From: a virus
Taxonomy: Duplodnaviria > Heunggongvirae > Uroviricota > Caudoviricetes
IMG/VR virus record: IMGVR_UViG_2693429774_000004
Span: 1 to 15,490 of that record
Length of the DNA stretch: 15,490 nt
Strand: one strand, 5' to 3'
Made by a program: the position numbers and the translations under genes. Shown here piece by piece: positions 5,184 to 15,490 of this stretch. How positions within the stretch are numbered: position 1 is the stretch's first letter; each line of letters begins with the position of its first letter. The notes under the pieces were generated by a model. The model ran no database searches. It saw only the letters and a list, made by a program, of their open reading frames with translations, and had not been told where the DNA came from.

Positions 5184-5981
5184 ATGCTGGCAAGAGGTAA
5201 GACTAACTTAAAGATCGAAGAAATACGGATGCATAAACATCATGAGATTCATAGGGTTAAGCCTCTTATGCCAGCTTTGTGTCGTATCCGTCAGGGAAAG
5301 AAAGTTATCAATTGGGAGACGCATACTTTAACTGTTGATAATAATCAAATAATATTATTTCCTTGTGGTTATGAATTTTATATTGAGAATTATCCTGAAG
5401 CAGGGCTTTATCTTGCAGAAATGCTTTACTTACCCATTGATTTAATTGAGAGTTTCCAAAAACTTTATACGGTAACTGATCAAATACGTAACAAAACAAG
5501 TTTCTTTTTACCTCAGAATCCTGAGTTAATATATTGTTGGGAGCAACTAAAAACATCTGTTTCCCGAGGCTTCTCAACTAAAATTCAGGAGCACTTAGCA
5601 ATGGGCGTTCTACTTTCGTTAGGAGTGAATCATGTTAATCATTTACTTTTATCATATAGTAAACAATCATTGATAAGTCGTTGTTATAACCTGCTGCTAT
5701 CCGAACCCGGCACAAAATGGACAGCAAACAAGGTTGCTCGATATCTCTACATTTCTGTTTCTACATTACATCGCCGTCTAGCAAGCGAGGGGGTAAGTTT
5801 CCAAAGTATACTGGACGATGTGAGGTTAAATAATGCGTTGTCTGCTATACAAACGACGGTAAAACCTATAAGCGAGATTGCCAGAGAAAATGGTTATAAG
5901 TGTCCTTCTCGTTTTACTGAAAGATTTCATAATCGTTTTAATATAACACCAAGAGAGATAAGAAAAGCTTCCAGAGAGTAA
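5184..5981 (+). CDS. ybcM: AraC/XylS-family transcriptional regulator
   Basis: 265-aa ORF with a C-terminal AraC-type double helix-turn-helix ([21 protein letters not shown]...[32 protein letters not shown]). Low-GC coding. Confidence 0.85.
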
Positions 5982-11981: not shown

Positions 11982-12180
11982 GAGGTTGCCCCGTATTCAG
12001 TGTCGCTGATTTGTATTGTCTGAAGTTGTTTTTACGTTAAGTTGATGCAGATCAATTAATACGATACCTGCGTCATAATTGATTATTTGACGTGGTTTGA
12101 TGGCGTAGATGCACGTTGTGACATATAGATGATAATTATTATCATTTTGCGGGTCCTTTCCGGCGATCCGACAGGTTACG

Positions 12181-12369: not shown

Positions 12370-12511
12370 ATGGAAGTCAACAAAAAGCAGCTGGCTGACA
12401 TTTTCGGTGCGAGTATCCGTACCATTCAGAACTGGCAGGAACAGGGAATGCCCGTTCTGCGAGGCGGTGGCAAGGGTAATGAGGTGCTTTATGACTCTGC
12501 CGCCGTCATAA
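12305..12511 (+). CDS. ybcW: 68-codon ORF overlapping cosB and the 5' end of nohD (YbcW-like); doubtful coding status
   Basis: ORF present in the track. I recall a 68-aa ybcW annotated at this position in K-12, but it lies in a different frame across cosB and nohD and the same DNA in lambda is not considered coding. Confidence 0.15.
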   Translation: MLKTSFWASVVSFLCFWPWNEQWKSTKSSWLTFSVRVSVPFRTGRNRECPFCEAVARVMRCFMTLPPS

Positions 12512-12915
12512 AATGGTATGCCGAAAGGGATGCTGAAATTGAGAACGAAAAGCTGCGCCGGGAAGTTGAAGAACTGCGGCAGGCCAGCGAGACAGATCTC
12601 CAGCCAGGGACTATTGAGTACGAACGCCATCGACTTACGCGTGCGCAGGCCGACGCACAGGAGCTGAAAAATGCCAGAGACTCCGCTGAAGTGGTGGAAA
12701 CCGCATTCTGTACTTTCGTGCTGTCGCGGATCGCAGGTGAAATTGCCAGTATTCTCGACGGGATCCCCCTGTCGGTGCAGCGGCGTTTTCCGGAACTGGA
12801 AAACCGACATGTTGATTTCCTGAAACGGGATATCATCAAAGCCATGAACAAAGCAGCCGCGCTGGATGAACTGATACCGGGGTTGCTGAGTGAATATATC
12901 GAACAGTCAGGTTAA
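12370..12915 (+). CDS. nohD: Terminase small subunit Nu1 homolog (cos-binding), full length
   Basis: 181-aa ORF MEVNKKQLADIFGASIRTIQNWQEQGMPVLRGGGKGNEVLYDSAAVIKWYAERDAEIENEKLRREVEELRQ...GLLSEYIEQSG, essentially lambda Nu1, with a winged-HTH N-terminus. Confidence 0.93.
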   Translation: MEVNKKQLADIFGASIRTIQNWQEQGMPVLRGGGKGNEVLYDSAAVIKWYAERDAEIENEKLRREVEELRQASETDLQPGTIEYERHRLTRAQADAQELKNARDSAEVVETAFCTFVLSRIAGEIASILDGIPLSVQRRFPELENRHVDFLKRDIIKAMNKAAALDELIPGLLSEYIEQSG

Positions 12916-13135
12916 CAGGCTGCGGCATTTTGTCCGCGCCGGGCTTCGCTCACTGTTCAGGCCGGAGCCACAGACCGCCGTTGAATGGGCGGATGCTAAT
13001 TACTATCTCCCGAAAGAATCCGCATACCAGGAAGGGCGCTGGGAAACACTGCCCTTTCAGCGGGCCATCATGAATGCGATGGGCAGCGACTACATCCGTG
13101 AGGTGAATGTGGTGAAGTCTGCCCGTGTCGGTTAA
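12890..13135 (+). pseudogene. N-terminal 81-codon stub of terminase large subunit A
   Basis: [81 protein letters not shown] matches the lambda gpA N-terminus, then stops at 13133-13135 where homology ends. Start overlaps the nohD 3' end as in lambda. Confidence 0.85.
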
Positions 13136-13185
13136 CCGCGCTGACAGACAATACGCAGGGGGCAGCAGGTCTTGAGTTATACGAG

Positions 13186-14088
13186 GTGTATAACAACGGA
13201 TATCCAACAGCGTATGGAAATATCATTCACCTGAAAGGGATGACAGCCGTTGGCGAAGGTGAGTTACTCATCGGCTGGAGTGGTACAAGCGGTGCTCATG
13301 CTCCGGCATTTATTCGTTCACGACGGGATACGACCGACGCAAACTGGTCGCCGTGGGCGCAGCTTTACACCTCGGCTCATCCTCCTGCAGAGTTTTATCC
13401 AGTCGGTGCACCAATCCCGTGGCCATCAGATACCGTTCCGTCTGGTTATGCCCTGATGCAGGGGCAGACTTTTGACAAATCTGCATACCCGAAACTTGCA
13501 GTTGCTTATCCGTCAGGCGTGATCCCTGATATGCGTGGCTGGACGATTAAGGGCAAGCCCGCCAGTGGTCGGGCCGTATTATCTCAGGAACAGGACGGCA
13601 TTAAATCGCACACCCACAGCGCCAGCGCATCCAGTACGGATTTGGGGACGAAAACCACATCGTCGTTTGATTACGGAACCAAATCCACGAATAACACCGG
13701 GGCGCATACCCATAGTATTAGCGGGACCGCAAATAGTGCCGGCGCGCACCAACACAAGAGTTCCGGTGCATTTGGTGGCACGAACACGAGCATTTTCCCT
13801 AATGGTTATACCGCGATTTCAAATCCAAGCGCGGGGATTATGAGCACAACAAGCGGTAGTGGCCAGACTCGTAATGCAGGGAAGACATCATCAGATGGTG
13901 CTCATACCCACTCGCTGTCCGGCACTGCTGCAATCGCAGGCGCACATGCACATACTGTCGGTATTGGTGCTCATACGCACTCCGTTGCGATTGGCTCACA
14001 TGGACACACCATCACCGTTAACGCTGCGGGTAACGCGGAAAACACCGTCAAAAACATCGCATTTAACTATATTGTGAGGCTTGCATAA
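13186..14088 (+). pseudogene. C-terminal fragment of a side tail fibre gene (lambda Stf / T4 gp37-like distal domain)
   Basis: 300-aa ORF ending ...[14 protein letters not shown] like lambda Stf, with seven His-x-His motifs. No N-terminal tail-attachment region. The frame is open from about 13117; the track start at 13186 is GTG. Confidence 0.85.
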
Positions 14089-14669
14089 TGGCATTCAGAA
14101 TGAGTGAACAAGCACGGACCATAAAAATTTATAATCTGCTGGCCGGAACTAATGAATTTATTGGTGAAGGTGACGCATATATTCCGCCTCATACAGGTCT
14201 GCCAGCAAACAGTACCGATATTGCACCACCAGATATTCCGGCAGGCTTCGTGGCTGTTTTCAACAGTGATGAGGCATCGTGGCATCTCGTTGAAGACCAT
14301 CGGGGTAAAACGGTTTATGACGTGGCTTCCGGCGACGCGTTATTTATTTCTGAACTCGGTCCGTTACCGGAAAATGTTACCTGGTTGTCGCCGGGAGGGG
14401 AATATCAGAAGTGGAACGGCACAGCCTGGGTGAAGGATACGGAAGCAGAAAAACTGTTCCGGATCCGGGAGGCAGAAGAAACAAAAAACAGCCTGATGCA
14501 GGTAGCCAGTGAGCATATTGCGCCACTTCAGGATGCTGTAGATCTGGAAATCGCAACGGAGGAAGAAACCTTGTTGCTGGAAGCCTGGAAAAAGTATCGG
14601 GTGTTGCTGAACCGTGTTGATACATTAACTGCACCGGATATTGAATGGCCAGTAGCACCTATAGGGTAA
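14088..14669 (+). CDS. tfaD: Tail fibre assembly protein Tfa
   Basis: 193-aa [57 protein letters not shown]... near-identical to lambda Tfa from memory. ATG overlaps the stf stop (TAATG). Confidence 0.9.
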
Positions 14670-14754
14670 ATTCGTAATGATTACCTAAATACGTTATTCT
14701 TTTGTTAAAAAAGTGATTTTGCTATAGGTAGGGAGTATGTTCTTGGATTAAGAA

Positions 14755-14786
14755 TAAAAAATCGCCATGAAAGAGCTTCATGGCGA
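14755..14786 (-). terminator. Perfect 10-bp stem-loop with adjacent A6/T6 tract, terminator-like in minus orientation
   Basis: TCGCCATGAA (14762-14771) pairs with TTCATGGCGA (14777-14786) around a 5-nt loop. AAAAAA lies immediately upstream on the plus strand, which is a U-tract after the hairpin on the minus strand. Confidence 0.3.
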
Positions 14787-15418
14787 GTACATAAACGTAC
14801 AAAATGTGATGAAAGTAGAGTGGCGTAAGCCACTATATTAAGATATGACAATAGCGAAGAAAAGTAAATAACATTTCATGGACGTTTAATTGTTAATTAT
14901 AAAAACTAGAGTGCCCGATATTGTTTATCTTGCTTTAAAATAATGTACTCAAACCAAATTTTTGAGCTAAAAGCTCAAATAATATAAATGCAATAATAAT
15001 GTTTAATAAGACAATTAGCTTGCTTTGTATTTTCATTTCGGAATACTGTTAAGTAACTTTGATGACCCTAACAATAGATCGGAATTTTCTTAGAGTCAAT
15101 GGTCACTGTTTTTGCTTGCAAAGCAAATGTTTTGGTGGTTATAAGTTGTCTTAATATAGTCACGCATGCAACTTGTTCCATGCGGAGATTAAAGATTGGA
15201 ATATAACGCGAAGATGGAATTAAATTACATTTGCAATAATCAATTTATTATTACTCAATAATTACCGATATTATTATTGTAAATTAATCATTAGAGTGCA
15301 AAAAGAAATGTAACGGCAAAATAAGAGGACGATAGCTGAGAAAAAAGCGTGCTTTCCCAATCTGGGGCAAATCACGTCTGAATGACACCTGAAAACAGGT
15401 GGTAGCCTCAAGAAGGCT

Positions 15419-15490
15419 GGTGATGCTGCCAACTTACTGATTTAGTGTATGATGGTGTTTTTGAGGTGCTCCAGTGGCTTCTGTTTCTAT
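15419..15490 (+). mobile_element. IS1 left end (terminal inverted repeat and start of insA), truncated by the window edge
   Basis: GGTGATGCTGCCAACTTACTGATTTAGTGTATGATGGTGTTTTTGAGGTGCTCCAGTGGCTTCTGTTTCTAT matches the IS1 terminus as I remember it. insA appears to start at the GTG at 15474 (V/M-A-S-V-S-I...). Confidence 0.85.

Follow-up and report, generated by a model that had tools for sequence, protein, structure and literature searches.

Organization of the stf–tfa locus

The analysed window (the whole stretch of 15,490 nt) belongs to a cryptic lambdoid prophage of E. coli. Its segment 12800–14700 was 100% identical to three complete chromosomes, e.g., NZ_CP148405.1, in which the genes follow a DLP12-like order (emrE, ybcK–ybcO, rusA, quuD, porin, essD-rrrD-rzpD, iss/bor, and nohD). 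After nohD, that record carries a terminase large-subunit fragment, a truncated tail protein, a tail-fibre assembly gene, and IS1. The right-hand part of the window contained the following features:

12370–12915 (+): nohD, lambda Nu1-type terminase small-subunit gene (RefSeq annotation of NZ_CP148405.1)
12890–13135 (+): fragment of the terminase large-subunit gene A, 81 codons and TAA (ORF list)
13127–13134 (no strand): deletion junction, 7-of-8-nt microhomology GTCGGtTA common to gene A and stf
13135–14088 (+): 5'-truncated stf (StfQ-like), 317 codons and stop (ORF, homology)
14088–14669 (+): tfa, intact tail-fibre assembly chaperone gene, 193 aa (Pfam Caudo_TAP PF02413, E = 3.9e-42)
15419–15490: left end of IS1 (GGTGATGCTGCCAACTTACTGAT...; IS1A in RefSeq)

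On translation, the open frame at 13135–14085 (+) gave 317 aa with the C-terminus IVRLA, and its stop codon closes at 14088. The start codon of tfa overlaps this stop (TAATG). Of the 1025 codons of the PhiR42_1 stf gene, only the last ~318 are left, starting at about codon 707, which agrees with the description of the gene as a tail-fibre remnant in the initial annotation. In the identical record NZ_CP148405.1, PGAP labels the gene “phage tail protein, missing N-terminus” and the gene A fragment “incomplete, missing C-terminus.” The N-terminal attachment and shaft part of a functional full-length Stf is absent; functional lambdoid stf genes are encoded after J and lom, whereas the remnant follows the terminase-A fragment.

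The window is 100% identical to lambda nu1/A at 12850–13134 (J02459, 671–955), where the lambda match stops, and the match to PhiR42_1 stf begins at 13127. The two matches overlap in the microhomology and thus point to a single illegitimate deletion. This microhomology-mediated event removed the DNA from A codon 82 through about stf codon 707 and joined the stf remnant, out of frame, to the terminase-A fragment. The TAA of that fragment occupies 13133–13135, in a reading frame different from that of the remnant. No credible start was found for the stf remnant, as the first in-frame candidates, GTG at 13186 and ATG at 13240, both lack a well-spaced Shine-Dalgarno sequence. The promoter scan detected no sigma-70-like site directly upstream of the remnant, the nearest one on the + strand being located at 12116–12145, before nohD. 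The remnant cannot make a virion-attached fibre, and the HxH motif that it carries is an intact fossil.

Domain structure of the stf remnant

The product of the remnant was divided into five segments. The limits of both collar parts follow the gp37 collar (D10, residues 811–881 and 1010–1026) as defined in PMC6957217.

13135–13389 (+), aa 1–85: pre-collar shaft segment
13390–13605 (+), aa 86–157: collar part 1, equivalent to gp37 811–881, no HxH
13606–13755 (+), aa 158–207: outgoing needle arm, HxH 1–3
13756–13902 (+), aa 208–256: hypervariable head (putative receptor-binding tip), no HxH
13903–14034 (+), aa 257–300: returning needle arm, HxH 4–7
14035–14085 (+), aa 301–317: collar part 2, C-terminal strand, equivalent to gp37 1010–1026, no HxH

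At the nucleotide level, the pre-collar segment shows 100% identity to PhiR42_1 stf, and its 80–85 residues share 69–76% amino acid identity with the tail-fibre proteins of P1, D6, and SSU5. Over 13135–13389, the segment is unrelated to lambda, T4, or ev099. Judging from these matches, a mosaic joint is located just upstream of the collar. The Pfam Collar domain (PF07484) was detected at aa 91–138 with 45.1 bits (cutoff 24; E = 9.8e-12). The Phage_fiber family (PF03335), a 14-residue repeat, reached 23.2 bits (cutoff 20) over three stretches, the best of which, aa 186–199, lies around GAHTHS.

Conservation was evaluated on 120 cluster representatives drawn from a search of 5.8 billion proteins. 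At most positions of aa 208–250, the residue of the window was matched in 5–55% of the representatives, and in the flanks in ~97–100%. The nucleotide identity of the head was 0.1–0.5 to PhiR42_1, lambda, and T4, and 97–100% to ev099. The C-terminal 16 residues are identical in the window, lambda, and T4.

HxH motifs and homology with the T4 gp37 tip

Translation recovered all seven HxH motifs that had been proposed between 13609 and 14007, in the proposed order and at the same coordinates. Each of them aligned with an HxH motif of T4 gp37:

13609–13617 (+): HxH 1, HTH, gp37 H883/885
13705–13713 (+): HxH 2, HTH, gp37 H915/917
13747–13755 (+): HxH 3, HQH, gp37 H929/931
13903–13911 (+): HxH 4, HTH, gp37 H966/968
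13945–13953 (+): HxH 5, HAH, gp37 H980/982
13972–13980 (+): HxH 6, HTH, gp37 H989/991
13999–14007 (+): HxH 7, HGH, gp37 H998/1000

The motifs had been described as GAHTHS-type and regularly spaced. GAHxH occurs in five of the seven, the remaining two being KSHTH and GSHGH. The spacing (32, 14, 52, 14, 9, and 9 residues) is not regular. All 14 histidines in the C-terminal 168 aa of the frame belong to HxH motifs. Histidine was present at each of the 14 positions in 118–120 of the 120 representatives, and all 14 are invariant in the alignment of the window, PhiR42_1, ev099, lambda Stf, and T4 gp37.

In a phmmer search against the PDB, aa 87–317 of the remnant matched chain A of 2XGF (28–242) with E = 5.9e-83. 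This structure comprises residues 785–1026 of T4 gp37, the receptor-binding tip, and gaps in the alignment were confined to one collar residue and a central block of indels in the head. The HxH motifs of gp37 start at 883, 915, 929, 966, 980, 989, and 998, at intervals of 32, 14, 37, 14, 9, and 9. The spacing is therefore the same as in the window except across the head, which is 15 residues longer in the window, and the layout of three motifs before the head and four after it is shared. The identity between the window tip and T4 gp37 was ~65% (tblastn). Thus, the resemblance to the histidine region of the T4 long-tail-fibre tip noted in the initial annotation reflects true homology, with 7/7 motifs aligned; a literature search found no paper using the term “His box.” At the sequence level, the remnant belongs to the gp37/Stf tip family in every respect compared, and it differs from a functional member only in not being full length.

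According to two reports on gp37, its needle contains seven His-bound iron atoms along the axis, and H929 and H931 are essential, as alanine at either position abolishes plaque formation (PMC6957217; PMC11705849). We consider it very likely that the seven HxH motifs of the window represent the metal-binding ladder of a T4-gp37-type tip and that the gene harbouring them is a 5'-truncated lambdoid stf, an allele of StfQ. From the homology to the gp37 structure, we infer that the product of the window would form a trimer and bind iron. The assignment of the metal as iron, as against zinc or some other ion, follows T4 and is accordingly presumptive for the window tip.

By homology with gp37, the fibre tip would be built of three intertwined chains. 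Each chain would leave the collar (aa 86–157), run outward along a thin needle through HxH 1–3 to the head (aa 208–256), and return along the needle through HxH 4–7 into the collar (aa 301–317). At each of the seven levels, the HxH motifs of three chains would supply six imidazoles that octahedrally coordinate one iron on the three-fold axis, and the axial ions would rivet the needle together; thus, the histidines would be structural. Receptor specificity would reside in the variable head, between HxH 3 and HxH 4, and folding of the tip would need the Tfa chaperone encoded directly downstream. An AlphaFold2 monomer model of aa 87–317 based on an alignment of 55 sequences was unusable (mean pLDDT 45.4, pTM 0.18), as expected because the predicted fold is an intertwined trimer.

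The T4 tip shares with the window the collar domain, the seven aligned motifs, the identical C-terminal residues, and a chaperone gene directly downstream. However, the head of the window is unrelated in sequence and longer, so the two tips probably differ in receptor specificity; the window encodes a chaperone of the lambda-Tfa type, whereas that of T4 is gp38; and the window gene, unlike gp37, lacks an upstream shaft and is a prophage fragment rather than part of a fibre. The Collar domain (PF07484) also links the remnant to further fibres, such as the T4 short tail fibre gp12 and the short tail fibre of PDB 9CUY (chain c, E = 6e-8). In gp12, Zn is coordinated by HxH on the trimer axis. Such fibres have a single metal site in contrast to the ladder of seven, and their homology with the remnant is limited to the collar.

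Comparison with lambda Stf and K-12 StfQ

The collar and needle of lambda (Ur-lambda) Stf are 69% identical to those of the window at the amino acid level, the nucleotide identity reaches 87–95% in the flanks and tfa, and the stf–tfa arrangement is alike; the segment 13951–14650 is 94.7% identical to lambda stf-3'/tfa. Lambda Stf differs in being full length, following J and lom, and in its head sequence. It also contains eight HxH motifs, owing to an extra 9-aa unit, IGAHQHPVV, and a 10-aa SFDYGTK(T)TG unit duplicated relative to the window and T4; the extra units occupy alignment columns 211–220 and 327–335. With the eighth motif, an additional metal site is predicted, and the two additions show that changes in unit number occur in the family. 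HxH motifs in lambda fibres were noted previously (PMC11705849), and lambda Stf binds OmpC (PMC11338833).

A close known counterpart is StfQ of E. coli K-12 (b1547, cryptic prophage Qin), to which the product of the window is identical at 314 of 317 residues; at the nucleotide level, 97.7% identity extends through tfaQ. On the right-hand side, both deletions end at the same point. However, K-12 lacks 236 nt corresponding to window positions 12899–13134, and this second deletion occurred at a TA microhomology (K-12 Qin locus 5840–5850). As a result, the K-12 remnant is fused in frame to the GTG start of gene A and annotated as a 320-aa CDS, whereas in the window the A fragment and its stop codon precede the remnant. 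The prophage backbones also differ, that of the window being DLP12-like. Among 5426 complete genomes, the K-12-type junction was found in ~360 and the window-type junction in 4–5. The window appears to preserve the rarer, intermediate state.

The three differences between the window and K-12 StfQ are K173 (E in K-12; codon 13651–13653), P231 (L; 13825–13827), and I267 (S; 13933–13935). The last of them lies just before HxH 5, and isoleucine at this position was found in none of the 120 representatives, essentially all of which have serine. I267 may represent a substitution private to a copy that no longer functions.

Mosaicism, DNA repeats, and alternative explanations

The window is 100% identical to PhiR42_1 stf from 13135 to ~13704 and diverges from it between HxH 2 and approximately HxH 4. 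Identity to ev099 is 97–100% over 13405–15418, through tfa; a literature search on phage ev099 yielded no relevant paper. These patterns indicate that the tip has been exchanged as a cassette within conserved flanks. Homologous recombination in the stf–tfa region between lambda and Qin has been measured experimentally at ~2e-6 (PMC3945230).

The region had also been described as a set of short imperfect direct repeats. Short repeats do exist, but they are weak: no exact direct repeat exceeds 12 nt (13896/13965), an imperfect one matches at 17 of 18 nt at best, and the search returned only families of 12–18 nt. Tandem Repeats Finder detected no tandem array in 13100–14700. When synonymous codons were permuted with the protein kept, a repeat of at least 12 nt appeared in 161 of 1000 permutations; the DNA repetition is therefore a by-product of the peptide motif. 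The related proposal of slippage or recombination gains little from this copy, since the peptide motif accounts for its short repeats, although relatives do vary in unit number, as the eighth motif of lambda illustrates.

The simplest alternative to a metal-binding ladder would be that the cluster of HxH motifs arose by chance, as a functionless by-product of a low-complexity sequence rich in Gly, Ala, Ser, Thr, and His. The compositional bias on which it relies is genuine, as claimed in the initial annotation, with A, G, T, and S making up 153 of the 317 residues. However, composition-preserving shuffles of the 317 aa gave a mean of 0.86 HxH motifs and reached seven in only one of 200,000 cases; furthermore, every motif aligns with one of a solved structure, and the histidines are invariant among phages that share only 55% identity overall. 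This explanation is already refuted. It is also conceivable that the motifs matter mainly as DNA, the short repeats serving as sites of crossover or slippage for head swaps or motif duplication. The mosaic structure of the window, PhiR42_1-like before ~13704, divergent beyond it, and ev099-like over 13405–15418, is consistent with this, as are the extra HxH unit and the duplicated SFDYGTK unit of lambda Stf. Work by Tetart et al., in J Mol Biol in 1996 and 1998, reportedly described duplications and swaps mediated by His boxes in the gp37 of T-even phages, which we also count in its favour. Against it, the repeats do not exceed 12 nt when exact, form no tandem array, and give no signal beyond that of the peptide motif; ordinary homologous recombination at any point of the long conserved flanks in the collar and needle would account equally well for the breakpoints; no recombination hotspot was found among lambda–Rac stf recombinants (PMC3945230); and protein function is the better explanation of why the histidines are invariant. 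We therefore regard a primarily DNA-level role as rather unlikely.

A further possibility is that the truncated tip and Tfa are co-expressed and that the tip plays a role for the host, e.g., by masking an outer-membrane receptor against adsorption of T-even or lambdoid phages. The reading frame, all of the motifs, and tfa are intact, and in the K-12-type Qin, present in the ~360 complete genomes mentioned above, the 236-nt deletion puts the remnant in frame with the start of gene A. The comparable T4 fragment 785–1026 folds when it is produced with its chaperones, and this was also counted in favour. A precedent exists in StfE2 of prophage e14, a chimeric cryptic-prophage protein with a claimed receptor-blocking defence, which is reported to block adsorption of T2; however, its domain is different (gp53-like) (PMC12529663). 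Moreover, the remnant has neither a signal peptide nor an export route, and its intact state would follow equally well from a recent origin or from gene conversion with live phages as donors, which fits its 97–100% identity to ev099 and PhiR42_1. Since the window version is not in frame with the A fragment and has no good start, receptor masking is unlikely here. A host-level role of the expressed tip is, on balance, very improbable. We would likewise give very little weight to the broader proposal that the tip and chaperone cassette has been kept because it is used, as a putative Tfa-folded, iron-stapled trimer interfering with adsorption in the manner of StfE2, especially in the K-12-type in-frame variant.

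In E. coli, the same Stf tip is found in numerous independent chimeric ORFs, joined directly to pieces of other phage genes. Among these partners are Nu1, Lom, a ClpP-type protease, portal, and terminase A, the last of them fused at two separate positions. Deletions that end within stf are therefore common. These ORFs were considered as a sign of selective retention, and this was rejected, since a tip-based search combined with ORF callers introduces an ascertainment bias.

Significance of the remnant and downstream region

The HxH ladder of the window is real, explained, and already known, and it is an ordinary feature of a cryptic-prophage remnant. Ladders of the gp37 type have been structurally characterised since 2010, are covered by the Pfam families Collar and Phage_fiber, and have been noted in lambda Stf. 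The window copy is itself an allele of stfQ, a known gene of K-12. Its importance beyond correct annotation is small. The useful result is that the domains of the remnant are mapped precisely, from the collar and outgoing arm to the hypervariable head and returning arm. Together with tfa, the remnant forms an intact, recombination-ready host-range module, and a fossil tip of this kind can still matter as a recombination template for incoming lambdoid phages.

Several additional observations concern the surroundings of the remnant. In NZ_CP148405.1, the right end of the prophage adjoins ybhB-bioABFCD (the lambda attachment region) rather than argU/ompT, as in the DLP12 of K-12; a DLP12-like gene set at ybhB-bio suggests a hybrid or relocated prophage. 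The Rfam family RF02111 (“IS009”) matched at 14431–14629 (+) with 227.9 bits (gathering threshold 117), wholly inside the tfa coding sequence. IS1 starts exactly where the homology to ev099 ends (15418), so its insertion site lies in the AT-rich cargo region that follows tfa. This AT-rich region also contains a strong terminator-like hairpin with 11 pairs and a T-run at 14762–14786 (− strand), facing leftwards, which suggests a leftward-transcribed cargo gene, the 5' part of which may have been disrupted by IS1.
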